From NCBI GenBank assembly GCA_047967505.1, contig CM106538.1: a stretch of DNA of 64,000 bases; one strand, 5' to 3'. The notes beneath the pieces were generated by a model. It saw only the letters and a list, made by a program, of their open reading frames with translations. It made no database searches and was not told where the DNA came from. The DNA is from Dipteris shenzhenensis. Taxonomy: Eukaryota. The position numbers and the translations under genes were made by a program. Shown piece after piece: positions 997 through 27,764 of this stretch (its first letter is position 1; every line of letters begins with the position of its first letter).

Positions 997-3900
997 GTAC
1001 CACCACGTCAACTTGAAGGAGCCACACTCTCTAGCATCCTAAGTTGCCCTGTGTCAATTCCCATCGGAATCCTCCTATGGAATTGTCCCAATCTATGGGA
1101 GAGTTTCAAAGGATGGATTGAACTCACAAATCCCCCTCCACCTATGAACGACATCGAGGATATCACTGTGCGGATGGGTGAGAGAGATGACATATGCAAC
1201 ATTACTATGCCTTTGATCCACAAGCCATATAATGAAGTCAAAGCCATAGTGGATGGTGGAGCAGGTGTAAATGTCCTATCAAAGGAGTTCTATGAAGAAT
1301 GGGGTCTCCCACCAATGCAAAAGGCTAATTTTAACATACACCTTGCCAATGATTCCCGGGCTAAACCCTTGGGAATAGTGAATGTTGTGTCCACAAAGAT
1401 CGCAAGAGTCTACTTTTCCTTTCAATTCAAAATCTTGGATCTCCCCAAAAAATCCTATCAAATCTTACTGGGACGTCCTTGGTTACAAGAAGCATCAGTC
1501 CTCCATGACTGGGGAATTGATAGACTAACAATCCAGAATCGCGACATTGCAGTCAGGGTGAATGTGGGGACAGGAGCTATTAAACCAATTGTGCCTAGAG
1601 CATTGGATGACACATCTTCAACAACAATCTCAAGCAAATCAGCTTTCTTGCAATAGCATGCCATAGCAGGTGACTCATAAAGCAATGCCAATAACTGGAT
1701 ACAAACATTGGCAACCATCCACAACTGACATTCATTAGATCCCATCTTCTCACAGATAGATGCTTAGTGCTACAGGTAGATCCTCCACTCCCACATGAAG
1801 AACTAATCGATCTAGAGATGCCATTCTTTATGGCTAAACTCGAGTGGGATAATGAACCTGAAGAAGATACCCATACCAATGATGACTCAGATTTTCCTTG
1901 GGACCTTGAAACAAATGTTGAGAATGCTAAAATTGAAGGTCAAATCTTTGATAATGACTTAGACATTCTGCATGCCCTAATGGCAGTCGAGCTCCCAAAA
2001 GTTAAACCTCCAAAGTTGAATAATAGCAAAAGATCCCACAAGAAAGCTGGAGGAAATCGCAAAAAAGCCAAGGCCGCGAGCACTTCAATGAATTCGAACA
2101 AGTCCAATCAAGGATCATCGAATTGTACCTTGCAAAGTTAGCTCCCTCAAAATCAGAACCACTGCCTCTTGAATGGTCCCTTGAGGGACTGGAAGGAGTA
2201 TGCGCAGCAAATGAACCCTTGGCAACACCTTACCAGTGGAAAAGTTACCCCACAGTTCCCAACGTAAGAAGTTTTGAAAGTATAAGCCACATATGCAAAT
2301 GAAGCTCAATCAAGAGACTTCAGAAAAAGAAAGTCAAAATGAGCCTAACAAATTGGTAAATGAAACGATGCAACCCAGTACACATGGCATATGTCAGGCT
2401 AGTTCAACACCATCAAAGGTCAATCTTCGAGAAGTGCCGGAATACTTCAAGAATTACACTAGTGGTAGTGCACCAATAGCAATGCCAAGACCACTAAGAG
2501 AATCTGAAGTTCAAGAAACTGATAGCATTGGAGAAACTCCAATCTATGAGGGACTGGCAAAAACACGCACAATAAACCTCGCCCTTGAAGGGGAGGAAGA
2601 AAAACTGGTTTTCATTGGGAAACAACTTCGACAAGAAGATGAAACCAAACTCAAAGCACTCCTAATGGAATACCATGACTACCTTGCATGGTCATAGAAA
2701 GAGATGAAAGGAATTTCACCAAAAGTGGCAGTACACACAATACCTATAAGGGAAGGTGCTCACCCTAAGGTATGTGGACCTTATCGCACAAATCCTAAAT
2801 ATGGCACCATGGTTTATGACGAGCTGGAAAAACTCCTAGATGTCGGATTCATCCACGAGATAGAGCACATTGATTGGGTTTCACCCATTGTCATTGTGCC
2901 TAAATGCAACAAGAAGCTCAAAATATGCATAAACTTACAAAATATGAATGCTGCCACAATTAGGGATCACTATCCCCTACCTTTAACAAAAATACTGTCG
3001 GAAAAGTTGGCAACTTAAAAAATATATAGATTCTTGGATGGCTTCAGTGGCTATAACCAAGTGCAAATCGCTCCTACAGACCAATCAAAGACAACATTTC
3101 TATAGAATGGGGTATTTTTACAAATAGAGTCATGCCATTTGGCCTTTGTAATGCCCCGGCCACATTCCAGCGAGTCATGTTCATAGCTTTCAAGTCATTT
3201 TTGAATAAGTTTTTACAGGTGTTCTTGGATGATTTTTGCATCCATTCAAACAAACAAGACCACTTCAAATGTCTTGAAGCAGCACTAATCAAATGCAGGG
3301 AGTATGGCATTTCCCTAAATCCAACAAAATGCCAGTTCATGGTCACCCACGGAGTTGTTTTGGGACACATCGTCTCTCAACATGGGATTGCAGCTGACAT
3401 GGATAAAATCAAAATCATCATGGAATTGCCTCCCTACAAATTCCAAAGGTGTACAGGTCTTTATGGGACATGCTGGCGATTATAGAAGATTTATATTGTG
3501 GTATGCCATGATAGCTAGACCACTTTACAAATTATTAGTGGATTTCTTATGGATCGAAGAGTGCGACCAAGCCTTTGAGCTTCTAAAGTGGCGCCTAATC
3601 ATAGCTCCCATCCTTATATCTCCCAATTGGGATATTGATTTTCATGTTCATACTGATGGATCCAAGTATGCAATTGGGAGTGTGCTTTATCAACCTGGTG
3701 AACATAAGAAAGACTACCCATTCTACTTTGCCAGTCGACAACTCAATGATGCAGAGATCAACTATACCACCATAGAAAGAGAAGCCCTAGCAATGGTGTA
3801 TAGTGTCAAGAAATTTTGGCACTATCTACTGGCAAATGATTTTGTCTTCTACACCGACCATCAAGCATTGCTTTATCTTGTGAATCGTCCTTGTACAATA

Positions 3901-5330
3901 GGAAGAATAACCAAATGGCTCCTCTTGCTTCAAGAATTCAACTTCAAAATAGTGGTCCGCAAAGGTGCCCAACACTACATTACTGATCACATGTCTCATG
4001 TCAAGTCGAGAGAAGAAGCCACTAGAGTAGAAGATGACTTACTAGATGCCACACTATTTCAAATAGATGCTGTTCCAGAGTGGTGTGGAGATATCATTGG
4101 GTACTTGATGGTAGGAAGACCACCCCCTGAAATGAGAGCAGTAGATGCTAGAAAATTGATTCTAAAGGCTGCACCCTATCAACTCATTGTAGGACAACTG
4201 TATAAGATGGGCAAGGATCATATTTAAGAAGATGTGTAACGCCTCATGAGATCATGCCAATCCTGAGTGAAGTCCATGAAGGCATTGTAGGAGGACACTT
4301 CCAAGGGGAAGCCACAGCAAGAAAAGTTCTCCTCACAGGCTACTGGTGGCCAACGCTATGGGCAGATGCCTATGAATATGTAAAAGGTCGTGATGTATGC
4401 TAATAGACTACTAAACCACAACACAAAGACTTCAATCCCCTAACAATAGTTGTTGCACAAAAACCACTTGAAAAATGGAGGATTGACTATGTGGGTCCCA
4501 TACATCCAGCAGCAAAAGGAACACAAGCATGCTACATCATTGTGGCCATTGATTACTTTACAAAATGGGCTGAAGCTAAAGCAGTCAGAAAGGCAGATGC
4601 TAAAAGCATAGCAAGATTCTTATATGAAAATGTGATCACCTGATTCAGATGCCCCATTGAAATTGTGTCAGATAGAGGCACACATTTTGTCAATGAGGTA
4701 ATCCAAGAACTCTTGTCTCATTTCATGGTAATCAATACAGAAAGCACACCCTACTATCTCCAAGGGAATGGACAGGCTGAATCCACCAACAAAATAATAT
4801 GCATTATCCTCACCAAGGTAGTAGAACCATAGCATTCTGATTGGGCAGAGAAACTGAATGCAGCCTTATGGGCATTCAGAACCACATTCAAGGTCAGCAC
4901 AAGGAACACACCTTTTCAATTGGTGTATGGCCTTGAAGCTATGGTCCCACTCGAATTTGTAATACCAAGCCTATGCATATCAGTATAGGAATGCATGGGA
5001 GACCATGAATCCTTGCAAGAAAGGCTCAATTAGTTGAGGAAGCATACAAAGACAAGATTAGTCGCCTACCATGCCATGACAATAGAAAAATGTGGAAGAA
5101 AGGCATGGTTTGATATAAATTTGAAAGCTAAAGACATTAAGGAAGGCGACTTAGTCCTGTTATACAATGCCAAAGTACACAAGGGGAAACTAAAGTATCT
5201 AGGTCAAGGACCCTACCGAGTACGAAAGATGAATCCCATCAAAGCTTTGCTGCTAGAAACATTGGATGGAGTCCAATTCAACACAATAATAAAGGGGAGC
5301 TGATTGAAGCGCTACTACAACAACATGTAA
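997..5330 (+). pseudogene. Gypsy pol (protease-RT-RNase H-integrase), many stops and frameshifts
   Basis: IVDGGAGVN protease; MPFGLCNAPATFQ and FLDD (RT); TDGS..IG, NY..EREALA, TDH (RNase H); GPY motif in the integrase C-terminus. Confidence 0.95.
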
Positions 5331-5522
5331 GCCATCCTCGACAAAAACAAAGATTTGGGAAACCAAGTCTTCCTTAGGATTAGATTGTATCATGAGCACT
5401 CACTTGCATATGTACGTCTTCGCAAATATAGGTAGCATCAATCAATTTTAAGCTAGGGCTCAGAAGTGATGCCTGAGTTCTAGCTGCCCTATGAAAACCC
5501 CAGTAATAAAAAAAGCATATAG

Positions 5523-5554
5523 CATTAGGAAAAAAGGGAGCTCATTTTGGGGCC
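5523..5554 (+). repeat. Left TIR CATTAGGAAAAAAGGGAGCTCATTTTGGGGCC
   Basis: Reverse complement of 12820-12851 with 2 mismatches. Confidence 0.92.
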
Positions 5555-6013
5555 TTTTACGGTTTGGAAAAATAAGCTCTCAACCAATCAATAGAAGGCC
5601 AACGTAACGTTGAAAATTCACGAAAATAAGAGAAAATAGAAAAAAGAAACAATACTTTATGTAAGTACAAGCGTGCTACATTAATGAGGAGATTGGTTTT
5701 TTATTCGTAGAAGATCTTTGGACAAGAAGATAGAATCTAAACTGACATTTTATCTGACAAGATCCTTCCCGCTTCCACCTTCCTTTGAATTTTCAAATAT
5801 TGTGCCGCCTTTCGTGCGAAAGGTCTACCATTCTACACCATTGCCTCATTGTGCAACTGCCTTCCTTTTCCAAAACTGCTCCCTTGATCCTGTTTGGTGT
5901 AGAGTAAGATGTTTCTCGTCAACTGTCTGTTTGCCCACTTTCTCTTTCTTGAAACTTCAAATTGTTATCTTAGTTACATTACTTTGCTATTCTTACAGAT
6001 TCAGAAAATCTCC

Positions 6014-7453
6014 ATGGTGAACCAAAACCACGGCCGTTCTTGTGCAAGACGCTCTGTGGATGATAATGCTACGAAGGCAGAATTATACCAAACATCCTTA
6101 CCCCGTCGACCTGCTTCTTCTATTTCGTCGGTAGAGAATTCAAGTACAGTCAAAACAGAAGGAACTTGGGAAAGGTTTAGTGTTTCGAAAGGAGCATGGG
6201 TGCTCATGCAACCTAGCAAAAGAAAAAGACCCCAGACAAAAAACATTTTCTTGGCATCGTGGAAGGGAAGAGTACGAGATTTTAAAATCACCAAAGGGAA
6301 GATATCCGTGAAAGAAGTTTTGATTCAGCACGTGTACATGCATAAAGAACTTGTCTTGCGAGACTATCCAAAAAATCTTCCGCAACACAGGCCTAATTGT
6401 ATATTTTTCTATTGTGGTTTTTTCCTTCATGAGGTGTATGGATTTTTAAGATGAAGCTTTCTCTCTTAACTTATTGACATTCTTGTGTTGTTTTATTTCA
6501 GATTTATATCCTTCATCGTATGAGACATGGCAAAACATCGATTGTATTTTGGGATTTATAGATGTTCTGCATGGATCGATAGGAGAACAACAATACCAAG
6601 GTCGATGTGCAACAGAGCTAGCTCAATCGGGTATATTTTTTACTGATCATTTTTATCAGTTGCTGGACAAAGCTAACACACATGGTGTATTAATAAAACA
6701 AGACCTTCCGGCATGGAATTCGGTGGATTGGCCTCACCCACATTCTAGTGTTACAGAGGCATATAGGGCGAAGCTTTTTACAGAAGTACAGAAAGCTCTG
6801 AGGCCCAATATTGCCACTAGGATAGTAAAAATTTCTTTGTGCATGCCTCTCACAGTTTTTGTAGACTTGTTTAATACCTTTCCAGTAAAGGTTTCAAAAA
6901 CAATGCTCACAGTTAAAGCAACAAATTCGGCATGCATGCCACAATTTTTGGATAAAGGTTGGGATAAGAAGACATGTAGTTCAGTGTTTTGTGAGGTGGT
7001 CCAACCTTCTATGCAACTGAAGTACATGGTTGCATCACAAAATCTTATTTTCTCTTTTTATTACAAGCGCAGTCGAATGCTAGGTTCAAAGCTTGTCCCA
7101 ATGGACCAAGATGAAGAGTCGTTTGGTGCACAAAATAAACTTATTGATATTGATGTTCTTGAGAATGGTGATGTGGTAGCCAGTATCTCGTTAAGAGAAT
7201 GTTGCTCCCTAGCTCAATTACGCAGTGACATTCTGTTTGAGACTGAAGGTTCTATCTCAAACGACTTTTTATTTATCTACAAGAACAGAAAGGTACACCA
7301 TCTGATTTATCCTAGTCTCTATAAGCATTGCTATTAGTTTAATTTACCACTCTAATTCATATTGCTTTTTTGCAGTTACTCAGAAGAAGAGAGAGCTCAG
7401 TTAAATGCAAAGACATAGAAAATTTTAAAATTGAGATCACACATACTCCATAA
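6014..7453 (+). CDS. Spliced ~417-aa protein: N-terminal BAH-like domain, unknown middle domain, C-terminal ubiquitin-like (beta-grasp) domain
   Basis: Exons 6014-6398, 6502-7292 and 7376-7453 are joined by GT-AG introns that keep frame with no stop. BAH-like pattern: WVLM..WKGRV..VLIQHVYMHKEL..PNYLYPSSYETWQNIDCILGFIDVL. Ubl-like pattern: SLAQLRSDI..DFLFIYKNRKL..RESSVKCKDI. Domain names are from pattern recognition only. Confidence 0.7.
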
Positions 7454-7537
7454 AGAAAGGTTTTGTATTCAATCAAGTAAGATTTTGTACAGAATTGTTT
7501 AGCTGAATCTGTAGAACATATTTCTAACATCCATTTT

Positions 7538-9632
7538 CTATTTATGTACAGTTTCATCCAGAGGCTGCTCTACATTTTCTGGAGGATCTTCTCTCTGCTG
7601 CTCCATCCTGTCCGTGCTTCATCCTGTCTCCTCCACTGCCCCAGAAGCCTCTCTTTGCTGCTTCTCCACCTTCTCCTCAACATCAACAGCAGGTCTTTGC
7701 TCCTGTGTCTGCTCCTCCTCAGCACTCTGTGATTGCTCCTGTGGCTTCTGGTCCTCAACATCAGGTGCTTCATATGTGGGATCAAGGTGTATGACACCTT
7801 CTTGTACTTTAGAGCTTTCACCCAGCTCCACAGTAGCTGCTACAATAGGTTTGGGGGAGGCATAGCTCAAAAACCTCAAAATTGTATGAGCTCTAAAATT
7901 ATGTACATAGTTGGGGCTGAAGCTATCCTCTTTCATCTGCAATGGCAGAGGATAATTTAGAACACTTTGTATCATTATGAATTATATTCAAGCTAAATGA
8001 AAAGTATTTTTCCTTACCAGATCTGGCTGTTCCTTTTCAAAGTAGCTTGAAAGTATATATTTTGCATTGATCAGCACCCTCCATCCACAACTACTTGAAT
8101 CATTTTGTTGTGGTGTCTGTACAGTTAGAAAAAAATGTTAGAAACTGTGAGCATCAGCACAAAACAAAATTATTCAATAAGTTCAAAGACATAGCATTTA
8201 ATAGACCTTTTACCTGTAGACTTAATGGCTCTATTGAATCCAACAGAGAGACATTTGGAGGACAATGATCCAATGCATCTAATAGCCTTCTAATACAACT
8301 GCAATATGTATAATTTAGTTAGTATGGTATCAAAATAATGAAGTTTTGAGTTCAGAAAGCACACACAGTAGTTACAATTTCAGCTCTCTGTGTGTGTTTT
8401 TTAGAGAGTTGAATAGAAAGCACTGCTTCTGCTAGATGTCAATAGACACAAAACTCCAGTGGTCACTGCATAAGGAAAAAAGCATAAGCAAATGAAAGGC
8501 TACAAGAGTTCCCAATATTAAAGAAGAATCTTAAAAGAAGTAGTCACCCACATACCTGCTATGATATGGAAGTAGCAAAATGTCAATTACTTCAAAATTG
8601 CAGTGTTTGAACCAGCTGGAAATACTCATGGGAGTCTCTTTTGCATCTCTTAATCTAGAAGAAATGGCTGGATCAACAATATGGACTGTATGTTGTACAG
8701 AGGGATGAAGCCAGCTTCTCATCATGCTGCATAGGATCAGAACATAATTAGGGTAGGTTATAAAAGAGTTACAAGGAGGATTGATTTGCAAAAAATGTAA
8801 AATCTAAAGACACTTACTAGAGCATTGCAAGAATGATAGTATCTGAGCAATACTCATTCTTGTTAGCCAATGCTGCTAAGCATTGTTTTGTCAAATCAAA
8901 ATCATTGACTGAAACTTCATCCTCAATATGTACAACTACATCAGGGCCCAGCTCCTTCAACCTTCTATGTATGTGTAGCTCCTTCTTTCCAGTTTCCACA
9001 TCTATCACAGATTTTGTTTCTTTTACTTGCTGCTTCAGTGAGTCCTCATAAGCAGCCTTCCCTCTGGTGTTCTTTGAGTGTGTTACCTCAACAACCTTTA
9101 CCTCATCAACCTTGACCTTCCTTGTAGGTGGAATTAGCAATATATCTCTCATTTTGATGTCCTGCCATTCCACAGGATGAACCAGCTTGTCATATCTCCA
9201 TCTCACTCTGGACAAAGTGTTGAAATCTTTGGCCATCAAAGTCACCCTGTGAGCATGGGCTGCTACAAGCATTGCATCCTCAAAATATTTCTCCAGGTAA
9301 TCCTCTGCCATTTCCTGCAAGGAAAGAATGGCAGTTCTATTCCACCTGAACCCAAGGTTCCAACTGTCACAAATTTCTCTCACCAGTCTTTGAAAGGGTG
9401 CTTTGGGTATTGCAAAACCTATGGCTTTCTGTTGCCTCCTTATTTCCCTAAGCACACCTGCACCCTTATTCAATCTTTTGGCCTTTTGCTTGAGCAAGCT
9501 CATTGGCTTACCCTTCTTGCCATGTGAAGCTCTTCCCTTTGGAGGAACACTAAACTTCTTGGAACCTGTCCCAGCTGCTGTTGCTGCTGGTCCTTTGCCA
9601 ACTTGCCTTGCAGTTGATTTGGTTCTTGCCAT
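7538..9632 (-). pseudogene. Histone H3-like domain fused to a Ulp1/C48 SUMO protease plus acidic tail (6 coding exons; premature stop in exon 3)
   Basis: Exons 9632-8818, 8726-8556, 8465-8376, 8298-8214, 8116-8018 and 7936-7619 (or 7538). All five introns are GT-AG, 77-97 nt, and phase-compatible. H3 motifs: ARTKSTAR, LREIRRQQK, PFQRLVREI, LQEMAEDYL, HAHRVTLMAKD. Ulp1 motifs: DILLLPYH, DHWSFVSID, FNSL, PQQNDSSSCG. In-frame TAG at 8434-8432. Confidence 0.88.
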
Positions 9633-9689
9633 CACTCTGAAAAACTGCATACAAAGGATTGGAAAGAGATCAAAGACATGAAGAACATG

Positions 9690-10600
9690 TTTTTACAAAG
9701 AAAAGGCAATCACAGGGGTGGTAGAAGACAAATAGAGAAATTTGCAATAAAATGCGATATGAGCAGTTTGGAATTTCAAACAGGTCCACATCGCATTTTG
9801 CTGCAAATTTTTTAAATGAAATGCTGGTGCACTCCTACAGTGATTTCTATGTTTCTCCAACCAAATATAGTATGAATGGAGGTCATTCAAGAAGATCACA
9901 TGCAAATATCACACTTGAAGATCTGCATTCCTTCAGTGATTTCTCTGTCTTGGTTTGAGCCTATGCATTTCCATACAGGATGTAATTTTTCTATTTTAGG
10001 CAAGAAGATTGCAGAGGCTAAGGGGAGTCACAAAACCAGACATGTTCTCATTAAGAAAAGGCAATTACAGAGGTGGAAGAAGCCAAATAGACAAATTTAC
10101 AATAAAATGCGATATGAGCAGTTTGGAATTTCAAACAGGTCCACATCGCATTTTGCTGCAAATTTCTGAAATGACATGCTGGTGAACTTCTACAGTGATT
10201 TCTTTGTCTCTCCAGCCAAATACAGTATGAATGGAGTTTATGCAAGAAGACTACAGCTATGGAAGTCAAAAAACCAGAACATGTTCTCACAAAGAGAAGG
10301 CAATCACAGGGGTGGAAGAAGCCAAATAGAGAAATTTGCAATAAAATGCGATATGAGCAGTTTGGAATTTCAAACAGGTCCACATCGCATTTTGCTGCAA
10401 ATTTTCTAAATGACATGCTGGTGCACTCCTACAGTGATTTCTATGTTTCTCCAACCAAATACAGTATGAATGGAGGTTAGGCAAGAAGATCACATGCAAA
10501 TATCACACTTGAAGATCTGCTTTCCTACAGTGATTTCTTTGTCTTGGTTTGAGTCTATGCATTTCCATACAGTATGTTTTTTTTCTATTTTAGGCAAAAA
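9690..10600. repeat. Tandem ~240-355 bp repeats, each containing a ~72-bp imperfect palindrome (3 copies)
   Basis: AATTTGCAATAAAATGCGATATGAGCAGTTTGGAATTTCAAACAGGTCCACATCGCATTTTGCTGCAAATT at ~9739, ~10094 and ~10333. Confidence 0.9.
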
Positions 10601-10830
10601 GATTGCAGAGACTAAGGGGAGAACCCATTGTTCCTGACCTGGAGTCTATCTGTGGATGTGCTGTGCTGCTGAGGAGTAATCTGTGCTGAGGATGATTCTG
10701 TGCTGCTGGACAAGATGCTGATGCTGCAGAGTATGGAGGTAGGGAGGCAAGAGGGCAGAGACTGGAGGGCAAGAGTTCTAAAACAGGATACCACAAAGAA
10801 GTGCAAAATGAATTAAAGAATCACTAAATC

Positions 10831-10910
10831 CCACACGTGTGGAATCTAGTCGTTTTTCACACGTGTGGATGGGACCCAGATCTCTTGGAGTTTGAAATCT
10901 GGCACGTGTG
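10831..10910. promoter_or_regulatory. Cluster of three G-boxes (CACGTG) and a GGGACCCA site; candidate (bidirectional) promoter
   Basis: CCACACGTGTGG at 10831-10842, CACACGTGTG at 10858-10867, GGCACGTGTG at 10901-10910, upstream of the H3-Ulp1 gene. Confidence 0.45.
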
Positions 10911-11329
10911 AAAGTACACTTTATTCCTTGGAACTTGTGCCATTCATTATTTCATCATGAATACCACAACCACTTTTCCCTCCCCTGGATTCCAATCTCT
11001 CATCCCTGCCACGACTCTCTCCTGATCCTTTCTCTCTGATTCTTTCCTGCCCAGCACACTCCATCCAGATTGCAGCCTGCCTGAAGACAGTACTGCCAGA
11101 TCTCCAGGTTACCTAGAGTGCAAGGTTCAAGCTAGAGAAAGAGCAGGAGATTTACCAGTGCAACTCAATCAGCATGGAAAAGGAAAAAAAAGGTCAGAGT
11201 TCTAGTTTGGTTTCAATGTTTTTCAACATTTATTTCTTCCATCCATTGGATTTTTTATGTCCCAATGTCTTCACTCAGCTCCATCCTTCTTCCACAATGT
11301 GGTAAATCACCCAAAAATTAGATTGTAGG

Positions 11330-11791
11330 TTGATATGAACAGAAACAAGAAATTTGCAACAAAATGCGAGGAGAGTGGTTTGGAATTCTCTAAACAGCCC
11401 ATATCGCATTTTGCTGCAAATTCCTGTTGTGGACTCCTTGCTCATGAAAATTTTCATTCATTCCATTTTTTCTCTTGCATATGAGAGCATAGTGTCCAGG
11501 AATCACTGAAATGAAGCAAGTGCTTGATTTGACATGCACATGAACAGAACTTGAGAATTTGCAACAAAATGCGAGGAGAGTGGTTTATAGTTCTCTAAAC
11601 AGCCCATATCGCATTTTGCTGCAAATTCCTGTTGTTGACACATTCCTCATGAATAGTATCACTCATTCCATTATTTCTCTTGCATGTGAGATCATAGTGT
11701 CCAGGAATCACTGAGATGAACCAAGTTCTTGATTTGACATGCACATGACCAGAATTTGAGAATTTGCAACAAAATGCGAGGAGAGTGGTTT
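11330..11791. repeat. Second array (~205-bp unit) with a variant of the same palindrome; third copy truncated
   Basis: AATTTGCAACAAAATGCGAGGAGAGTGGTTT...ATATCGCATTTTGCTGCAAATT at ~11351 and ~11556; partial copy at 11761-11791. Confidence 0.88.
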
Positions 11792-12450
11792 GACTATATT
11801 ATTCAGCACCTCCATTCTTATTTTGCGACAATCAACGAAATAGATATAGTCTGGAAGAGAGCCTTTTTGAGTATACAAAATGATAAATTTCAATCTAACC
11901 TTGCTTCCTGAATTCGTCGCTTGCATCCACCAGTCCCAGCCTTCAAATTTGCAATGTTTTTAATCTTCCTGCTACGTTGTCTGTCTCCAAGCACGGTTCT
12001 CTTCTTTCTTGCTCTTGTCAATTCTTTTTTACTCTTTGAATGCTCCTCGATTTCATTCTGCAACTGCTGCTCCAATTTTGCACGAATGGCTATCTCCTCC
12101 ATCTTGGCCCCCTTTTCTTGTAGGTACATCATTTTATACGTTTCCGCAAATGCAGATTGCGCTGAAATATAACCAAGAAGTCCATTTTGTCCATCGCCGG
12201 CAAACCTCAGTAATGTGGTGGGATTGACAAATGGAGGTGTAGAGTTTTTTACTTGACATTTTGGATATATGCTTCCGTCGCACCATAAGTCAATATGTTG
12301 AAGCCCTTCTCTTCTCATATTTTCCCGCTGTTGAGCATTCAGCACCGTATCCTTTCGTCTTTTTTGTGCTGGAGCATATTGTTCTTCCAAGTCGATGTGA
12401 AGATGGTGTAATCGCTTCTTCTCAGATAGTGACTCACTAGTATCGGCCAT
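11792..12450 (-). pseudogene. Truncated ORF starting inside the right TIR end (coiled-coil/basic); possibly the N-terminus of the lost transposase
   Basis: 186-aa ORF (12450-11890). About 100 bp past its stop the sequence abuts a truncated repeat unit at 11791, which looks like a deletion junction. No catalytic motif seen. Confidence 0.45.
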
Positions 12451-12819
12451 TTTTTGTGCTCCTCAGGTTGCGAAGTTTGTTTTTCAATCTCATAGTCGTT
12501 TTGTAACATGAATCGTGGAAGTGTGGCGGTATCCATGTGAATATTTTGAAAACTTGCAATCACTAAGTTCAGTGATGGACTCTTAATGAAAGACCTGCAC
12601 ACGTCGGCCAAAGAGATGCGGAATCTTTGGTAAACAAAAAAAAATCTAAGAGGATATTTAATACAAAATCGTGTTAGTCAGACAAAATATTATCTTATTC
12701 CTTTTTGAATTGACAGTTCTGTAGTCCTTACTGACAAATCTGAGCCACGTTTCCGTATTTTACTATTTTTGAGGTCTTTTAGGAGAGAAATAAATCAAAA
12801 AATAGTGAATTTCTTACAG

Positions 12820-12851
12820 GGCCCCAAAATGAGTTCCCTTTTTCCCTAATG
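12820..12851 (-). repeat. Right TIR
   Basis: GGCCCCAAAATGAGTTCCCTTTTTCCCTAATG, reverse complement of the left TIR. Confidence 0.92.
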
Positions 12852-13212
12852 TTAGTCCATACCTAGCTACTAGGTCATGTGCACTCATACGCTTTCTCTT
12901 AGACACATAGATGATTGCATGAATAATTATACCACACACTTTCATTTCACACTCTCAAAGCATGTATAAAAATAAGATTTCTCACACACACACAAAAAGG
13001 TCATACCAACATGCCAACACCACATGCACATGGATGCAGGTTTAGAGATGCCATCACTAAAGAGGATGCACAAAAAGAGCCCACTGCCTCAACCATGAGA
13101 CCCCCTCTAGAGTTCACATCAATCTACATCCTCTCAACCATGGCGACCATAGCCATTCATGGTCCAACGCGATAGCTCCGAAGAGGATTTAGTGGATGAC
13201 CAAGAAGAACAA

Positions 13213-14726
13213 ATGCCACCCTAGTCACCAACGGCCTACACAGCCATTGACGGGGCCTAGTCATTGGAACTTGTTTGGCCACCCACATCGACTTATGCTC
13301 TTTCCTAGGAAGCAACATCTTACTTAGAGCAAAGGGGTCTAGCCAGTTTGCATGAGAGCCTAAAATCCTTGGAGGACAGTTCTACAATGACCACATACAT
13401 CAAGGACTTTTTCCATTCTTACCACTCCAACAATGCAAAGGTTGGCAATACGGTACAATCACTGTACATCAGAGCCCACTAAATATTATCCTCGATAGTA
13501 CAGTCATTGAAAGGGATTTCTCACTGCCAACATAAGGTGCCAAATACCCTAATCGGCCTGCTGATGCAAAGTTTATCAAAGTACAGTGTCTCCTCACCAA
13601 GGGCACACTAATCCATAGAGACGGCATATTGCTTTGCACAATCCTTGACCATCGCCTCACGGAAGTAAGACAATTCCTATCCACAATCCTGGGGGTTAAG
13701 TGTGGCAAGAATCGATCCCTTCCACTCCGCACATTTGTTTTGTTGAGTAGGAAGCTAAAACAAGACTGGGTCCAGCACTTAGTCATCTTCTTTACAAAGA
13801 AACTAGATGGTTCTTTAGGCCAAAAATGTAAAATTCCACACTTATTGGCTATAATCATAAAAAAAGAACCACAAGAAAGAGAAATGACTCTGCCCCATGA
13901 CTCTAGCCCAGTCACCAAAACCAATGAGGAGTTGGACATACCTTTCTCACCAGTATGGGAGCCGTCACCAACTTCTCCTACTATAACATTGATAGGTGCA
14001 GTTGCCTTAGAAGAAATACCTATTCTGGAGGCTAGGATTGCAGAATTGCCTCAAGAGATGCTACAACTCGGTGCACAATTGCAACCAATATATCTCTAAC
14101 AACAGCAGCAACCAGAGCTCGAGGCAAGATTGGCACTAGAACCTGAGGAAAGATTGGCACCAAAGCCTGAGGCTACATTAGTACTAGAACCACCCATCGA
14201 CGCCATGCCAGTAGATGAGCCACAAGGGGAGCTAGTGCCAGATCAACAGTATGACTATTGTACACAAGGGACTAAAATACCATTGGAACAACCTCCCCCA
14301 AGTACTATAGAATCATCGGGCTGGCTACATGGGCACCATTTGTATCAGCAGTATCGCTAGACCTCATCACTGTCTGTCATTCTCCAACATCAAGCTAGCC
14401 AGATGATCCAAATGTTAGAACTATTCACTAGCTTGGCCAAGGAGGAATATGCAAGACAATTGGAAAGACAGACTGCAATAGAAATTGAAGACCAATTCCA
14501 AGCAATCGCCATAGAGGTCAAGGCAGTTTGGCACAGATAGATGAGAAGGAGGTAGAAGAAGTGCGCATGAACCAAGCTCTCCAAGCTCAAGAGAAGGCAG
14601 TGAGGGATGTGACCTCCAACCTCCACCAAAGTCAAACACGGCTGACAATAGTAGTACAAGCAATGGCAATCCTACATACCTACTATAACTCCTTGACATT
14701 TGCACATGCTCAACAGATGGAGGTAG
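13213..14726 (+). pseudogene. Gypsy copy 1 extra 3' ORF (5' part), decayed
   Basis: Homologous to 52470-53973 (LPLRTFVLLSRKLKQDWVQH). Confidence 0.85.
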
Positions 14727-14983
14727 TGACAAAATATGAAGAGGGGAGAGGAGAAGAGTGGAGATGAGGAGAAAGGGCACAGCTAGAGAGCACACCACAA
14801 ATGACTAACTGTACACTAGATTTAGTTGAAAAAATAGAATATATACAAACCCTTTTAGGGTTAGGGCTAGGGGATCTAACCCTTTCCTTCATAGCACTCT
14901 ATAAGGTTAGTGCTATGCACATATGATCACGTGATGGTGCTATGCACACATGATCACATGATGTTGAGCGTGAACTCTCAACA
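14727..14983 (-). repeat. Copia A 3' LTR
   Basis: TG..CA; near-identical to 25448-25696 and 29637-29893. Confidence 0.93.
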
Positions 14984-15587
14984 CCTTCCCTCAAGATCAA
15001 CATCATGAAGTAGGCCTTCCCTCAAGATGATGATTCTAGGGAATCGAAGAAGGACTGAGCATTACATTCCATCACACCCCTTTAATGGGAATTTCCTTCC
15101 TCTGTGTCAAACCAAGAGCTAATTGGTGTTTCTCAAAAAGCTCTTTACCGAGTGGTTTGGTAAAGATGTCTGCAACATTCTCTTTGCTACCATAATGCTG
15201 CAGTGTGATGTCACCAAGTAACACTCTTTCTCTGATGAAGTGCTCTCTAACATCAATGTGCTTTTTGTCCTGGAGTGATATACTGGATTTTTGGCCACCA
15301 ATGCTTGAGCTGATTGATTATCACAGTATATTGTTGTTGGCTTTGACTCATCAAAGTAATCTATTTCTGACAATAGTGTTCTGAGCCATATAGCCTCACA
15401 TGCACCTGTAGTGAGTGCCCTATATTTTGCTTCAGTCGAAGACAAAGAAACAGTTGGTTGTTTGTTTGACAACCATGATATAGCACCTTGACCAAGGAAA
15501 AATGCATATCCCTGTGTCGATCTCATGATCTTATGATCTCTAGCATAGTCACTATCATAGTATCCATGCAATCCTGGATGACTCCCT

Positions 15588-15885
15588 TGTTGAGATATCA
15601 AGCTCTACCCCCGATATATCTCCTGGATGACTATCATTTATGTCACCGCCTATGTTAGTTGTACTCGTGGTGTAGTTAGACTACCACGTATGTTTTTGGT
15701 TTGGGTTCACATATGAACCACGGATTCTAGGGTTTGACATATAGGGTATTTCCCTCTTCTATTGTATTGTTGTTGTGTGCAAAAGTGAAGAATGGCTTCA
15801 CCCTCCAACCTTGTGTCCTCTCTCTTTTGTGTGTTGTGAAGAAAGCTGAACTTGAGTCTCCTATCTCTCTCCCTTATTCTTTACA
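15588..15885 (+). repeat. Copia B 5' LTR
   Basis: TG..CA, direct repeat of 20686-20983. Confidence 0.97.
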
Positions 15886-16372
15886 TGGTATTAGAGCCTT
15901 GTTCGTGGTAAGGAGCTCAAGAAAGCAAGCCAAGTTTGTGGTGTCCTGGTAAGAGGACCAGTGTTGCTTTCCTATTTCGTGTTTGGGAGCAAATCTCTGC
16001 AGGTAGCACAGCCAGAAGTGCAGGAGTGCACTGTTTCTGATTTGAGGCCGTTTCGGGCCCCGTTTTGAAGGCGGAAGTTCTTCGCAGGCACTCAGAAAAA
16101 GGCCCTGTTTTTCGCTGTGCGCGGCTAGTCGGTGAAAAGGTGCCACAAAAATTGCATTGTATGCCTGCGTGCAGAGATATTGGGAGTTGCAGATTCATGC
16201 TTGTTGCCTGTTGATGCAAAATCGTCACTAGGAAGTGACTGTGTGGTGAAATACCACTTTCGTCAGTGTTGCAGATCTGCCCCTGTGAGGCTTTTTGCAG
16301 AAGTTTTGCTATTTGCCCTTGTGAGGCATTTGCTGTGTTTACAGGTTGCTGTTGCAATTCGTGATTTGTAAA

Positions 16373-19300
16373 ATGTCTGAGAATCTGTCTACCATTGTCA
16401 GTGAGAAGCTTGACAAGAACAACTTCCAAGCATGGAAGTTCAGGATGACAAACTTCCTTATGGGAAAGGGAGTTTGGGAGTACATCAGTGGTGAAACTGC
16501 AGAACCAGTTTTGGGTGCTGCTCCCACTCCTGCTGAATTGAAGGCCTTTAAAGAATGGCATGAAAAAGCCAGAAAATGCCTGTATTGGCTGTCTATTAGC
16601 ATTTCAGATTCTATGATTGTGCATATACAGGATGTAGAGACGCCTAAGGAGGCATGGGATACATTGGTGAAGCTGTATAGCACAAATACCAAAGCACGAA
16701 AGATGCAGCTAAAGCAGGAGTTGCACAATGTGCAAAGGAAAAATCTGAATATAAATGAGTATTCCTTGAAAGTGAAAGGCCTTGCAGATTCTCTTGCCTC
16801 CATTGGAGCACCTGTTGATGATGAGGACTTAGTGTCCGTGACCTTGAATGGTCTTGGGAAAGATTATGCACAGTTTCGGACATCCATTGGAGTCCGTGAA
16901 ACATTTCTTGATTTTCAGGAACTTATTGCTCTCTTGCTGAGTGAAGAGCAAAGGAATGGTGGTTCAGCCACCTCAACTTCTCAAGAGACTACTTTCTACT
17001 CGAATACAGGTAGAGGCAGAGGTAGAGGAAGAGGCCGTTTTGGTGGCCGTGCAGGAAATCAGAACCAACAGCAACAACAGGAAAACCAGTCCTATGGAGG
17101 AGGACGTGGTAGTTCTAGAGGCAGGGGGAGCCAAAGAGGCCGTGGTTCATGGCAAAGGAACCAGCAAGTAAATAGTAGCACAGAATGCTATTATTGTGGA
17201 AAGCCTGGACACAAGAAGAATACATGCTATAAAAAGCAGAATGACATCAAAAGTGGGAAGTTGCAGCAAAGCAACTATGCATCATCAAGTGGGCATGGTG
17301 ACGACAGAAATGAGCACCTTTTTGTGATGCAGCATATGGTTAACTCCATGTCAGGAGATGCTGCAGCTTGCAATGATGTTTGGTATGTTGATTCAGGTGC
17401 CTCTAACCACATGACCAGTCATGGTGAGTGGTTTCATGATGTTAGAAATTTGGATAAGCCAGGTTATGTTGAAACAGGTTATGATACTGTGTACCCAATT
17501 ACGCAGGTTGGTAAAGTGCCATTGGCTATGCAGGATGGCAAAACGAAGTACTTGCCAGATGTACTTCATGTTCCAAAAATCACTAAGAACCTGGTTTCAG
17601 TTGGCCAGATGGTTGAGCAAGGTCTGCAGGTTAGATTTAATCCTGATGGATGCTTTGTTGAGGACTTGAAAAATAAGTGCCGCTTGGTTGCGAAAGGCAA
17701 CAAAAATGGCAGAATGTTCACCTTGGATGTTGATATGCCTGAGGTGAAAGCTGCTATGTTTGCGCATGGGAGAGGTGTCATTGCAGATATTGAGATATGG
17801 CACAAGCGCATTGGGCACGTGAATATACAAAGGCTGAAATCTATGCAAACGAAAAACATTGTTGCAGGTTTGCCTAAATTCAGAGTTGAGGGAATGCAAA
17901 AGGTATGTGAAGCATGCCAAATGGGTAAGCAGGCCAGACATGCATTTCCCAAAAATGCTAAGGTGAGCAGAAGACCTTTGGAAGTGATCCATTTAGATGT
18001 TTGGACAACCAAAGCTGCTTCGATTTGTGGATGCCATTATTATGTGACGTTTATTGATGACTACACTAGGAAGGTGTGGATTTATTTTATGAAGCACAAA
18101 AGTGAAGTGTTCAGCCATTTCAAGGCTTTTAAGGCCATGGTTGAAAAAGAGAAAGGTGTGCATATTAAAGTGCTAAGATCTGATGGAGGGGGAGAGTACT
18201 TTTCAGAAGAATTTTGTGAATATCTGAAAGAACAGGGAATTCAAAGGAAGTACTCATGCAGGTCTACCCCTCAGCAGAATGGGGTTGCAGAAAGGAAGAA
18301 CAGGCATATTACAGAAGTAGGACGGGTGATCCTAAATGAGAAAAACATGCCTGATTATTTTTGGGCTGAAGCAGTAGCAACTGCTGTTTATATTATGAAC
18401 AGAACTCCCACTGCAGCTGTCCATGGCATGACGCCTGAAGAAATGTATACAGGCCAAAAACCAGATATTTCTCACTTGAAGGTATTTGGTTGCATAGCTT
18501 ATGTTCATGTTCCTGATGAGAAGAGAACAAAGCTGGATCCAAAGGCAGAAAAATGCATCTTTATTGGATATGCTCTGCACCAGAAAGGGTATCGCTATTA
18601 TAACCCTTCCACCCGCAAAATGCAAGTGAGCAGAGATGTTGTTTTTGATGAAATGAGCAGCTGGTATGCACCAACTGTTATGGTAGGAGATGCAGATGCA
18701 GGAAATGGGAATGCTGCAATAAATGCAGAGCAACAATCTCAAGCCTTGAGTGGACCCAGAGAGTCCTCTACTAGTGGATCTAATGCATGGACAGGGACAT
18801 TGAGATATAGTGAATCGTCACATGGCAGCCCTGATAGTGTTGTGCAGGTATCACATAAGGGAAAAGAAAAAGTAGACCATGCTCCAGTGTTTGATGTGTT
18901 TTCTGGTAGCTCTCATGTTGATGGAAAGTCAAGCGGCTCTGAAATGAGCCTTGATGAGGAACTTGGGATTCCTTCTGTTGTTACACCTGGTGCAAGGAAA
19001 AGCAGGCATGATTTAAAGACTCCTACAACTGATCCAGTTGTACGGAGGTCCACTCGTATTAAGTATCCAGTTGACAGGCTGAGATATGATGGGTATACAG
19101 CACATCACTATGCTTATATGGTCAAGGTTCTAGAGGAGCCAGAGCCCACATGTTTTGAGGATGCAGCAGGGCATAAAAATTGGGAAGCAGCTATGGATGA
19201 AGAGATGGCTGCCTTGGATGCAAACCACACTTGGGATTTGATGCCTTTGCCTCATGATAAGAAGGCTATTGGCTGCAAGTGGGTTTACAAAGTAAAGCAC

Positions 19301-20728
19301 AATGCTGATGGGTCAGTTAGCAGGTACAAGGCAAGATTGGTTGCCAAAGGTTTTGCACAGACATATGGAATTGACTATGAGGAAACTTTCAGCCCAGTTG
19401 CAAGGATGGCAACCGTGAGAGCAGTAATTGCTATGGCTGCTGCAAAGGGATGGTCTTTGCATCAGATGGATGTGAAAAATGCCTTCTTGCATGGTGATTT
19501 GCAGGAAGAGGTTTATATGATGCAGCCAGAAGGTTATGAGGATAATTCACACCCCGATTTTGTATGTAGGTTGCGCAAAGCCTTGTATGGCTTAAAACAG
19601 GCGCCGAGGGCATGGTCAGACAAGATAGGGCAATATCTTGTCACTATTGGATTTCAGATTTCCAATTCAGATTTTTCACTTTATGTGAAAAGGACAAACA
19701 GAGGGATTGTGCTTATAGTCATCTATGTTGATGACTTGATTATTACAGGTGATAGTGATGCAGACATTAATGAAGTGAAGCTACTGTTGAAGCATAAATT
19801 TGAGATGAAGGATTTGGGAGAGCTGCGTTACTTCTTGGGCATTGAGGTTATTAGATCCCCGAGTGGGATATGGCTGTTGCAAAGGCAATACGGTTTGGAC
19901 ATGCTGTCCAAATATGGGATGACAGGCTGTAAGCCTATTTCTGTTCCATTGGAGCAGAATGTGAAGCTCAATGCAGAGACAGGTGAGCTTCTTGAAGATA
20001 TTACTATGTACAGGCGCATAGTAGGTAGCTTGATTTACATGACTATAACCAGACCAGATTTGAGCTATGCTGTGGGGCTGGTAAGTCAGTTTATGCAGGC
20101 ACCGAGGAAGCCACATTTGGATGCGGCTAGGCACATACTGCGGTATGTGAAGTCCACATTGCATTATGGACTATTTTATGAAGCTGGGTGTGCATTACAG
20201 GTACATGGATACACAGATGCTGATTGGGTTGGTAGTGTCTCAGACAGGAGATCTACTAGTGGTTTTATGTTTTCCCTTGGGAGTGGTGCCATCAGTTGGA
20301 GTAGCAAGAAGCAGCCAACAGTTGCCTTGTCGAGCACAGAGGCTGAGTACAGGGGTGCAGCAATGGCTGCATGTGAGGTAGCTTGGTTACGGAAGCTACT
20401 TGCAGATATGGGACAGTCAATTCATGCAGCAGTTGTCATTCATTGTGACAACATTAGCAGCATCATGCTTGCTAATAACCCAGTTTATCATGCTAGAACG
20501 AAGCACATTGAGGTGCATTATCACTTTGTGAGAGAGAAGGTTCTAGCTGGTGAGATTAATCTTGTCTATGTCAGCACTGAGGAGCAGGTGGCTGATATTT
20601 TTACGAAGGCATTGGGTACCGAGAAGCTTCGCAGATTTAGGAGCTTGCTTGGTGTACGTGAGATGGATTTGAGCTTGAGGGGGAGTGTTGAGATATCAAG
20701 CTCTACCCCCGATATATCTCCTGGATGA
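16373..20728 (+). CDS. Copia gag-pol polyprotein (gag, CCHC, protease, integrase, RT, RNase H), uninterrupted, 1451 aa
   Basis: Single ORF from ATG 16373 with CYYCGKPGHKKNTC, VDSGASNHM, FIDDY/RSDGGGEY/NGVAERKN, YVDDL, DADW, HCDN. Confidence 0.97.
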   Translation: MSENLSTIVSEKLDKNNFQAWKFRMTNFLMGKGVWEYISGETAEPVLGAAPTPAELKAFKEWHEKARKCLYWLSISISDSMIVHIQDVETPKEAWDTLVKLYSTNTKARKMQLKQELHNVQRKNLNINEYSLKVKGLADSLASIGAPVDDEDLVSVTLNGLGKDYAQFRTSIGVRETFLDFQELIALLLSEEQRNGGSATSTSQETTFYSNTGRGRGRGRGRFGGRAGNQNQQQQQENQSYGGGRGSSRGRGSQRGRGSWQRNQQVNSSTECYYCGKPGHKKNTCYKKQNDIKSGKLQQSNYASSSGHGDDRNEHLFVMQHMVNSMSGDAAACNDVWYVDSGASNHMTSHGEWFHDVRNLDKPGYVETGYDTVYPITQVGKVPLAMQDGKTKYLPDVLHVPKITKNLVSVGQMVEQGLQVRFNPDGCFVEDLKNKCRLVAKGNKNGRMFTLDVDMPEVKAAMFAHGRGVIADIEIWHKRIGHVNIQRLKSMQTKNIVAGLPKFRVEGMQKVCEACQMGKQARHAFPKNAKVSRRPLEVIHLDVWTTKAASICGCHYYVTFIDDYTRKVWIYFMKHKSEVFSHFKAFKAMVEKEKGVHIKVLRSDGGGEYFSEEFCEYLKEQGIQRKYSCRSTPQQNGVAERKNRHITEVGRVILNEKNMPDYFWAEAVATAVYIMNRTPTAAVHGMTPEEMYTGQKPDISHLKVFGCIAYVHVPDEKRTKLDPKAEKCIFIGYALHQKGYRYYNPSTRKMQVSRDVVFDEMSSWYAPTVMVGDADAGNGNAAINAEQQSQALSGPRESSTSGSNAWTGTLRYSESSHGSPDSVVQVSHKGKEKVDHAPVFDVFSGSSHVDGKSSGSEMSLDEELGIPSVVTPGARKSRHDLKTPTTDPVVRRSTRIKYPVDRLRYDGYTAHHYAYMVKVLEEPEPTCFEDAAGHKNWEAAMDEEMAALDANHTWDLMPLPHDKKAIGCKWVYKVKHNADGSVSRYKARLVAKGFAQTYGIDYEETFSPVARMATVRAVIAMAAAKGWSLHQMDVKNAFLHGDLQEEVYMMQPEGYEDNSHPDFVCRLRKALYGLKQAPRAWSDKIGQYLVTIGFQISNSDFSLYVKRTNRGIVLIVIYVDDLIITGDSDADINEVKLLLKHKFEMKDLGELRYFLGIEVIRSPSGIWLLQRQYGLDMLSKYGMTGCKPISVPLEQNVKLNAETGELLEDITMYRRIVGSLIYMTITRPDLSYAVGLVSQFMQAPRKPHLDAARHILRYVKSTLHYGLFYEAGCALQVHGYTDADWVGSVSDRRSTSGFMFSLGSGAISWSSKKQPTVALSSTEAEYRGAAMAACEVAWLRKLLADMGQSIHAAVVIHCDNISSIMLANNPVYHARTKHIEVHYHFVREKVLAGEINLVYVSTEEQVADIFTKALGTEKLRRFRSLLGVREMDLSLRGSVEISSSTPDISPG

Positions 20729-20983
20729 CTATCATTTATGTCACCGCCTATGTTAGTTGTACTCGTGGTGTAGTTAGACTACCACGTATGTTTTTGGTTT
20801 GGGTTCACATATGAACCACGTATTCTAGGGTTTGACATATAGGGTATTTCCCTCTTCTACTGTATTGTTGTTGTGTGCAAAAGTGAAGAATGGCTTCACC
20901 CTCCAACCTTGTGTCCTCTCTCTTTTGTGTGTTGTGAAGAAAGCTGAACTTGAGTCTCCTATCTCTCTCCCTTATTCTTTACA
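20686..20983 (+). repeat. Copia B 3' LTR
   Basis: Direct repeat followed by TSD TCCCT. Confidence 0.97.
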
Positions 20984-23900: not shown

Positions 23901-25447
23901 ATGATCTAGCTTTGCCTCTGCCTTTGCCTCTGCTTCTATCTGAAGCTATGAATGCCTGATCATTAGAATGACCTTTACGTGCTTGAATGGCCTGAGTCCT
24001 GAGTTCTTCACCAAGTAGAACTGGCTGAAGTTCTTCCAGTGTCACAATTTGCCATTGGATGGCAATACTATGGACTAGATTCTTGTATCCCTCTCCTAGT
24101 CCATTCAGGATGACTTGAACCATTTCTGCGGGGTTCATAATCTCTCCTGCTACTGCAACTTGATTGTTGTAGTCTTTGATGCGAAGCACATAAGCATGAC
24201 CGGTTTCACTGCTGTTGCGAAAACTTTGGTTGTTCTGGTTTCTCAAGGTGAGAATCCTGGATGTGTTCTTGGACTTGTAGAGAGCTGCGAACATATCCCA
24301 TGCTTCTTTTGATGTCTTGACTATGTTGAGTTGTCCTAGCATGACATCTTGCACATTTTGCTTGATCAGATGATAGGCATACTTGTCTTTCTTATCCCAT
24401 TTTGCTTGAGCTCAGGCAATGGCAGGATCTGCTAATGGTACGGAAACTGCTTGTGTAGATGTAGATCTGGTTGTAGATTCCGTTGCTGGTGCTATGACAA
24501 CAGATGGAGTAGAGCTATTAGTGGCTGGATTGTCCAATGGTCTAGGTGTAGACCCATCGACATACTCCCATTTGTCCTGAAGCACAAGAATGTCTCCATT
24601 CGGTATTTCCATGTACCATAATTGGAGTTGTCTAACTTAGCAAATGCCTCCAGATTGAGGTTGCTAGTCGACATGGTGCAAGGAATGTACTCAAAAGTGT
24701 CGTGAAAATCTCTGTATGAATCAACTACAAATACACTGACTATGCCAAGCGAAATCTCTGAACTGTCGAAGAAGATAGAACTGCAATATATAAAATCTAA
24801 TATGTATTACAAGGCTTGTGGCAATGATACCGAGAATAGCCAAGGGGCTTTATAAGGCTGAAATGATGTGCACGATGCCGTGAGATAGCCAAATAGGCTT
24901 TACAATGGTGGCATGTGTGTGTGAAATCAAATGTTATCTGCCCACTGAATCAATTTGCAATGCCTCTAAACTCTGAAGTCTGCTCACTATACTGATGAAT
25001 GTAAGGTTTCAGGTAATGTAATGATGTGAAACCATATATGAGCGTATAGACTGACTTCGAGTAGGTACTAGTCGAGAATTTCAGGCATGGCTTAGATTGG
25101 CAACTTGGGGAAATTCAAAGTGTCCCCTCTACGGTGATCTAGCCTACTCTGATCTAGATCTAAACCAATCATCGATCGATGAAAGAATAGCAAATAATTC
25201 TTTTTCTTTTGTTCTTTTTAAGTGCTGGGTCAGATGCGTTGATGTAGAGGCAAATGTGCATGAAGGAAGTGGTTTTGTCGGCGAGGCTCAAATGTGAGTG
25301 TAACTTGCACCAAAATGTGCATGTGATGTGACAAGTGCGTAGAACATGAAAAATGCTTACTCAATCACTCTCAATCAATCTCGATCTATCACTCTCTCTC
25401 ACGTGGATCACAATGCCTCAGCGGAAGGCAAGGTAGCTCTGATACCA

Positions 25448-25696: not shown

Positions 25697-25701
25697 AGTA
25701 G

Positions 25702-27740: not shown

Positions 27741-27764
27741 TGGGTAATAAAATGGATCCGAGAG

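Follow-up and report, generated by a model that had tools for sequence, protein, structure and literature searches.

An inserted DNA transposon with a transposase first exon, a companion gene and a broken histone H3-Ulp1-like gene in Dipteris shenzhenensis

The stretch of DNA analyzed here (the window) comprises 64,000 nucleotides of contig CM106538.1 from the Dipteris shenzhenensis assembly GCA_047967505.1, and it contains a mobile element inserted in a Ty3/gypsy retrotransposon. Between its terminal inverted repeats (TIRs), the element holds a companion gene, here called gene 2, a gene in which a histone H3 is fused to an Ulp1-like protease module (H3-Ulp1), two arrays of palindromic repeats, and the first coding exon of a transposase gene. 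The coordinates of these features are collected in Table 1. The nearest named homologues were proteins of the fern Adiantum.

The first letters of the insert at 5523 were CATTAGGAAAAAAGGGAGCTCATTTTGGGGCC, and the stretch 5523-5554 was matched by 12820-12851, read in reverse complement, at 30 of 32 positions, in keeping with the original prediction of a 7.3-kb insert with 32-bp TIRs. A repeat finder extended the pair over 40 nt at 88%, and the 19-nt core of the TIR occurred twice in the window, against 0.02 occurrences expected. The left 1-kb flank matched 51087-52077 at 90.0% identity, the match ending at 52077, and the right 1-kb flank matched 52078-53109 at 85.2% identity, starting at 52078; the predicted rejoining of the flanks at an empty site within the window was confirmed at 52077/52078. 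The filled site read ...GCATATAG/CATTAGG...CCCTAATG/TTAGTCC and the empty site GCATATAG/TTAGTCC. When the window was compared with itself, 997-5522, 12851-14728, and 25693-27764 were collinear with 47540-56066, and the open reading frames (ORFs) of these stretches encoded aspartyl protease, reverse transcriptase (RT), RNase H, and integrase domains in Ty3/gypsy order. Both flank copies are therefore Ty3/gypsy retrotransposon and not a duplication of unique DNA. The interrupted gypsy copy is split again at 14728-25693 by other long terminal repeat (LTR)-element sequence.

Table 1. Features of the inserted element and of the matching empty site (positions in the window)
Feature	Position	Strand	Details
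Insert (whole mobile element)	5523-12851		7,329 bp
Left TIR	5523-5554	+	CATTAGG...GGGGCC; 5'-CA terminus
Companion gene (gene 2)	6014-7453	+	Exons 6014-6398, 6502-7292, 7376-7453; predicted 417 aa, intact
3'-untranslated region (UTR) intron of gene 2	7460-7551	+	92 nt, GT..AG; joint in one X3 contig
Histone H3-Ulp1-like fusion gene	7619-9632	-	525 codons; exons 9632-8818, 8726-8556, 8465-8376, 8298-8214, 8116-8018, 7936-7619; based on Pfam, tblastn, and splice sites
In-frame TAG	8432-8434	-	Between the catalytic-His motif (DHW) and FNSL
Palindromic array A	9682-10621		Three units of ~240 bp, each with a palindrome of 24-nt arms and a 25-nt spacer
Palindromic array B	11335-11791		2.2 units of 205 bp; same 19-mer as array A, in near-abutting inverted pairs
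Transposase intron 1 remnant	11791-11898	-	108 nt; ends 20 nt short of the acceptor present in X1
Transposase first coding exon	11899-12450	-	184 codons; ATG at 12450
ORF containing the transposase exon ("third ORF")	11890-12462	-	
Right TIR	12820-12851	-	...TG-3' terminus; shares homology with the end that precedes the transposase gene in L001
Uninterrupted ("empty") site	52077-52078		Paralogous Ty3/gypsy copy; same empty sequence in X1 and X2 contigs

Four public runs (X1-X4) supplied contigs that were aligned to window positions 4500-14000; X1 and X2 are DNA-like runs, and X3 and X4 were taken as RNA by guess. At least seven records from X2, X3, and X4 ceased to match at 5521-5525 and continued leftward into unrelated sequence, and at least three from X3 and X4 ended their match at 12845-12852, again followed by unrelated sequence. 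One X1 contig (depth 18) linked 5510 to 12851 with GCATATA between them, which is the empty form, and an X2 contig did likewise. Because contigs of other runs break at the same two ends and have different flanks, the element is multi-copy and mobile: with precisely the same ends it is found elsewhere in other genomes, and in the X1 and X2 contigs the gypsy family usually has the empty form.

The filled and empty sites differed by the insert alone, with a 1-bp G assignable to either side, showing that the element integrated between the G and the T of ...ATATAG^TTAGTCC... in the Ty3/gypsy element and that the target was not duplicated. A DDE transposon of the CMCT clade (CACTA/EnSpm-Mirage-Chapaev-Transib), to which the transposase is compared below, is expected to make a duplication of 2-5 bp. 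Duplications of 2, 3, 4, or 5 bp under shifted boundaries were considered, and none fits. A reading of the empty site as an excision footprint (TA-G-T-TA, with element termini G...T and a TA duplication) was rejected, since the "empty" sequence is the common gypsy form in X1 (depth 18) and in X2. As controls, two neighboring LTR elements have clean 5-bp duplications, TCCCT (15588-20984) and ATAAT (33452-37776). The base immediately outside the left end (before CATTAGG; window position 5522) was G in 5 of the 7 records listed, and the base outside the right, transposase-side end (after CCTAATG; window position 12852) was T in all three records listed and also at position 129 of L001, a metagenome contig with a related transposase. 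This suggests a preferred G^T target, although the bases could instead be an asymmetric outermost base of the element itself.

The ORF next to the right TIR had been predicted to be a truncated third ORF in an element without a transposase. The element indeed has no complete transposase; the ORF itself, however, is the first exon of a transposase gene, followed by part of intron 1. A search of 1.84 billion representative proteins with the ORF gave 153 relatives at E<=1e-3, one named relative being a hypothetical protein of Adiantum nelumboides, and a search with the C-terminal part of one longer relative found six relatives of 690-857 aa. The window exon aligned to residues 3-186 of one of these, the 857-aa protein P0299, and no other part of P0299 was encoded anywhere in the 64-kb window. 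The exon ends at a GT donor (11898-11897). Contigs of X3 and X4 joined 11899 straight to ...AAATTATTGGAGCC... (minus-strand reading), whereas an X1 contig had 128 nt between the same two points, beginning with GT and ending in ...TTACAG. As this intron is removed in X3 and X4, these runs are probably RNA and the family is probably transcribed. The window departs from X1 at 11791, where array B begins, and a right junction of a substituted segment at 11791 is well supported.

The link between this exon and the termini was provided by L001, where an 840-aa transposase ORF is preceded, about 350 bp upstream, by CATTAGGG...GGGCCCTGTAAGAAA. The L001 terminus, CATTAGGGCTAAAAGTGAGAAGTTGAGGGCCCTGTAAGAAA, is homologous to the right end of the window element and is preceded by foreign sequence. 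Because L001 shares this terminus beside its transposase ORF, the TIR belongs to the transposase family. Downstream of its transposase ORF, L001 has a convergent second ORF (3751-4845, minus strand) of 364 aa. It was rejected as a homologue of gene 2 (BLASTP E 0.8; no similarity with tblastn), and it had no Pfam match. Companion genes thus seem to differ between lineages of the family. An ORF downstream of the transposase in a second metagenome locus, L002 (3421-3687), faintly resembled the L001 companion (tblastn E 0.087).

When the long transposase relatives were aligned with L001 and L002, the motifs LKLDE, (A/G)DLK, and VHxCTxH were found in 8 of 8 aligned sequences and PC(I/L)YC in 7 of 8, and GMEK(S/T)H was present in all three that reach that far. 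The full-length relatives therefore display the series D, D, C(2)C, H(4)H, E; the window exon lies upstream of all catalytic motifs, which are known from the relatives. The element has CA..TG termini (CATTAGG...CCTAATG), and L001 has the same terminus. The CMCT clade is characterized by D-D-C(2)C-H(4)H-E motifs, 5'-CA..TG-3' termini, and a 2-5 bp duplication, as described in PMC12730594. Since two of these three features were found and the duplication was not, we classified the element as CMCT-type; it is like the clade in motifs and termini and unlike it in that the window insertion has no 2-5 bp duplication and only exon 1 is kept. Pfam gave no match for the window transposase exon and no transposase domain in ten longer relatives. 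In the ESM Atlas, residues 330-830 of P0299 were placed beside RAG1 clusters at 0.95-0.96, and 8 of the 10 best family-labelled hits agreed. Foldseek with a model of P0299 (mean predicted local distance difference test score, pLDDT, 42.5) returned RAG complexes in 16 of the 44 rows listed, at E 0.08-1.1 and template modeling (TM) scores of at most 0.24.

The gene to the left of array A was modeled in six exons from tblastn alignments with two Adiantum homologues and from the reading of three frames. All five predicted introns were GT..AG, and the spliced frame was held throughout. The predicted pair of convergent, intron-containing genes was thus recovered, with six exons on the minus strand and three on the plus strand, the introns of both being GT..AG. 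The ORF 8817-9692 matched the Pfam family Histone (PF00125) at E 2.1e-26 (93 bits, against a cut-off of 26.4), and the protein starts with MARTKSTAR, an H3-type N-terminal tail. The fern homologue P0017 matched H3 chains in the PDB at E 3e-21. Among the 120 proteins listed, two had coverage wider than the histone fold; both are hypothetical proteins, one from Adiantum nelumboides (69% of the query) and one from A. capillus-veneris (93%), the latter running on into ...PQQKDNHKCGW. The Adiantum homologues P0002 and P0017 have open frames and are annotated as ordinary hypothetical genes, each in a one-member cluster. The predicted window product opens with an H3 tail and fold and continues through a linker into a module in which DHW, FNSL, PQQ, and SCGW follow one another in what we take to be the order of His, Asp, Gln, and Cys in Ulp1-type proteases. 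The position of the catalytic Asp is occupied by Asn (FNSL) in the window copy. P0017 reached 15.8 bits (E 0.013) against Peptidase_C48 (PF02902), below the cut-off of 20.7, and none of the single exons of the window gene, searched one by one, matched PF02902.

A fusion of histone H3 with Ulp1 had been predicted from the window; the histone match and one spliced frame with Ulp1-like motifs uphold it, but the reading frame is stopped by an in-frame TAG. The copy is therefore broken, and the premature stop, together with Asn in place of the catalytic Asp, makes it most likely that the gene is dead cargo in this element. Segments of the gene were present at 94-98% identity in contigs of the two DNA-like runs. 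X3 and X4 cover the other two genes and not H3-Ulp1, and the uncovered stretch (7987-11790) is not evidence of silence. Among the papers listed in literature searches, none described an H3-Ulp1 fusion, whether as a gene family in seed-free plants or as cargo of a transposon.

The palindrome arrays named in the original prediction were borne out as two arrays of a paired 19-mer, AATTTGCARYAAAATGCGA, of which 11 copies occur in the window at up to three mismatches, against 0.08 expected. All copies lie within 9739-11779, mostly as head-to-head pairs, and none is near the TIRs. Array A lies directly upstream of the H3-Ulp1 start, and the end of array B coincides exactly with the start of homology to the canonical transposase intron. 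By their sequence layout, the arrays resemble protein-binding subterminal repeats, yet they sit in the interior of the element. Repeated palindromes were also observed in L001, where a 16-nt arm, GGTCAATACCAAGCGA, recurs at least six times in both orientations at 4937-5190, near the end opposite the transposase; they parallel the window arrays in arrangement and are unrelated to them in sequence.

In gene 2, a frame change between the ORFs 5903-6454 and 6450-7337 was resolved by a 103-nt GT..AG intron, and a second intron (7293-7375) leads to a stop codon at 7451-7453. Both coding introns are predictions, and they are read through in the contigs of other runs and in four database homologues. 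These four, unnamed and 55-88% identical, were the only homologues in a collection of 5.8 billion proteins at the lengths searched, and they are well conserved along exon 2. One X3 contig ran from a foreign flank through the left TIR into gene 2, and further contigs extended the cover to 7757 at 92-98% identity; gene 2 is therefore a fixed neighbor of the left end in the copies of another organism. We consider gene 2 probably a required partner of the transposase. Co-occurrence of the two genes within TIRs in other copies, the lack of which had been named as a refutation, was found in part: gene 2 beside the left TIR and the transposase exon beside the right TIR recur in contigs of other organisms, and the contigs with H3-Ulp1 all came from the two DNA-like runs.

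The BAH and Ubl domains proposed for gene 2 did not emerge from the searches. The segments 5903-6454, 6014-6397, and 6504-7292 had no Pfam match even at E<=10, the putative BAH segment straddling the junction of exons 1 and 2, which were searched separately; a sequence search of the PDB gave no match for exon 1, and an ESM Atlas search gave no usable match for exon 2. The AlphaFold2 model was poor (mean pLDDT 38.7), with a strand-strand-helix-strand element at ORF residues 231-277 at a pLDDT of about 60. The two labels are neither confirmed nor excluded. Within exon 2 (6630-6830), seven of eight PDB profile matches were to NTF2, at a non-significant E of 0.47-0.71; the alignment falls on ...F.DHFYQLLD..., and an NTF2-like cone would agree with the predicted order of helices and then a beta sheet. 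In an X3 contig, gene 2 has a 3' UTR (7552-7757) that overlaps the last coding exon of H3-Ulp1 (7619-7936), and the convergent transcripts would therefore be complementary over at least 139 nt.

The original prediction had compared the element with the KAONASHI and VANDAL groups of Mutator-like elements (MULEs). MULEs are marked by a MURA-type transposase and a 9-bp duplication, and KAONASHI MULEs and some CACTA elements carry Ulp1-like proteases. The likeness to KAONASHI, CACTA, and VANDAL elements lies in a putative C48/Ulp1-like gene in a plant DNA transposon and in repeated short motifs in non-coding parts, whereas in the window element the putative protease module is joined to an entire histone H3 fold that has an ARTK tail. 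We rejected a MULE origin, as the transposase remnant is of a different family and there is no 9-bp duplication; the exon and the part of intron 1 that remain point instead to a CMCT/RAG1-like DNA transposon. Spy elements are reportedly DNA transposons without target-site duplication. Like the window element, they are DDE-type TIR elements with precise insertion, although Spy is a PIF/Harbinger-related group and so of a different transposase lineage.

RAG1 clusters were the nearest named neighbors of the transposase by language-model features, and the convergent arrangement of a transposase and a second gene between TIRs, seen in the window and in L001, is also that of RAG1L and RAG2L in ProtoRAG. 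The window element is unlike Transib and RAG in having no duplication, a TIR that starts with CATTAGG, and a gene 2 with no sign of a RAG2-like propeller; Transib elements have 5-bp duplications and CAC-heptamer TIRs (PMC8355894). Lanisha has been proposed as a superfamily from the moss Ceratodon purpureus (PMC8245031) and was placed in the CMCT clade (PMC12730594). Lanisha is likewise a cut-and-paste family of a seed-free land plant, and the window element may belong to it, in which case the transposase part would already have a name. Among the papers listed, judged mostly by title and abstract, no description of a Transib/RAG1-like lineage in plants was found except that of the little-described moss Lanisha.

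We consider the insert to be, probably, a non-autonomous copy, substituted internally, of a DNA transposon family that moves by cut-and-paste in seed-free plants. The transposase of the family would be a DDE enzyme of the CMCT clade, of which RAG1 is a domesticated relative, and the canonical order would be a TIR, the companion gene reading inward, the transposase gene reading inward from the other side, and the second TIR. The window copy would have kept its two ends and the companion gene, together with the transposase promoter, exon 1, and part of intron 1, and would have lost everything from 20 nt before the end of that intron onward. In its place would have come about 4 kb with the H3-Ulp1 gene and its upstream palindromic arrays, possibly through interrupted gap repair or template switching after excision. 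Such a copy could move only if an autonomous relative supplied a transposase recognizing the shared CATTAGG... termini. Judging from their sequence, intact H3-Ulp1 relatives would place a SUMO-type protease on chromatin through the H3 fold and the ARTK...TAR tail.

Several observations weigh against this reading. The left junction of the substituted segment is tentatively placed at 7757, where two contigs (X1 and X3) end, and the last H3-Ulp1 exon (7936-7619) runs on through this point with its frame open. Among the contigs and loci compared there was no autonomous copy of the lineage to which the window element belongs, and the canonical gene order is deduced from contig break points and from L001, which is of a different lineage with an unrelated companion ORF. 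As to the clade, Pfam found neither the CACTA family Transposase_21 nor the RAG1 family in the long transposases, sequence and profile searches of the PDB with the transposase gave no match, and the RAG matches of Foldseek, with a poor model and E>=0.08, are a hint only. No target-site duplication longer than 1 bp was found at the one insertion for which filled and empty sites were compared. Finally, the identity of X3 and X4 as RNA is a guess, and the two predicted coding introns of gene 2 are kept in their contigs.

A different account would make H3-Ulp1, the companion gene, and the arrays the joint equipment of a three-gene autonomous family that acts on chromatin, with the H3 fold and tail targeting or mimicking nucleosomes, the protease deSUMOylating silencing factors, and the arrays serving as putative binding sites of the protein; the window copy would then have arisen by simple deletion, with the loss of the transposase body alone. 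It would suit this account that the companion gene is conserved and intact, that H3-Ulp1-type proteins have open frames in two Adiantum species, that the arrays stand directly upstream of the H3-Ulp1 start, that the related L001 also has repeated palindromes near one end, and that segments of H3-Ulp1 persist at 94-98% identity in two DNA-like runs. The in-frame TAG and the Asn for the catalytic Asp in the window copy speak against it, as do the space of only 750 bp in L001, with no third gene between its convergent ORFs, and the failure to detect BAH and Ubl. We regard this account as rather unlikely, and joint action of the genes on chromatin is speculation. More doubtful still is a bolder reading, in which a RAG1-like (CMCT) lineage of seed-free plants would combine flush integration with chromatin-directed partners, the conserved convergent companion gene occupying the position of RAG2, and in which a sub-lineage would escape or divert silencing by means of a deSUMOylase fused to an H3 mimic that can enter nucleosomes and acts at the palindromic arrays of the element.

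The remaining accounts concern the origin of the 4-kb middle. It might be a second, unrelated mobile element or fragment nested in the first, with the arrays as its subterminal repeats and H3-Ulp1 as its gene, much as CACTA or MULE elements can bear Ulp1, since the paired 19-mer arrays resemble subterminal transposase-binding repeats and the break of homology at 11791 coincides with the end of array B. However, no inverted repeat of at least 9 nt joins 7700-7850 to 11700-11850, and the transposase exons expected on the far side of such an insertion are absent from the whole window; we judge a nested element improbable. H3-Ulp1 could also be a single-copy host gene that was captured once (Pack-type) and is now decaying, unrelated to transposon biology, as the stop codon in the window copy and the annotation of the Adiantum homologues as ordinary hypothetical genes in one-member clusters would allow. 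Against this, all five introns and the promoter region are kept and near-identical segments exist in other runs, as would be expected of a gene travelling as DNA in several copies. A capture is, moreover, already part of the substituted-copy explanation, from which the Pack-type account differs only on whether the cargo ever mattered, and we hold it to be the least probable of the readings considered.

If the interpretation as a substituted CMCT-type copy is confirmed, a transposase lineage nearest to RAG1/Transib would be present, and apparently transcribed, in seed-free land plants, and a DDE-type insertion without duplication would bear on the stagger of strand transfer in the CMCT clade. 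It would also point to a transposon-borne gene family in which an Ulp1-like protease is fused to a complete histone H3; such a protease, if delivered into nucleosomes, would offer a mobile element or a host a new means of editing SUMO marks on chromatin. The window copy is defective, and its value is that of a pointer to the family and not of a working system.

Other repeats in the window were also recorded. The element at 15588-20984 is a young Ty1/copia element with 299-bp LTRs at 99.3% identity, flanked by the TCCCT duplication; it has an uninterrupted gag-pol ORF of 1,467 aa (16325-20728) and is nested in the older LTR-element sequence that interrupts the gypsy copy at 14728-25693. The element at 33452-37776, flanked by the ATAAT duplication, has 469-bp LTRs at 99.1% identity, and its sole long ORF (33896-37207; 1,103 aa) has gag/capsid and zinc-knuckle matches and no RT or integrase; it is probably a non-autonomous retroelement. 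Tandem and dispersed repeats with units of ~40-60 bp, in both orientations, lie beside gypsy copies at 27786-28620, 41222-42314, 56069-57145, and 62403-63645, and are probably LTR-internal satellites.

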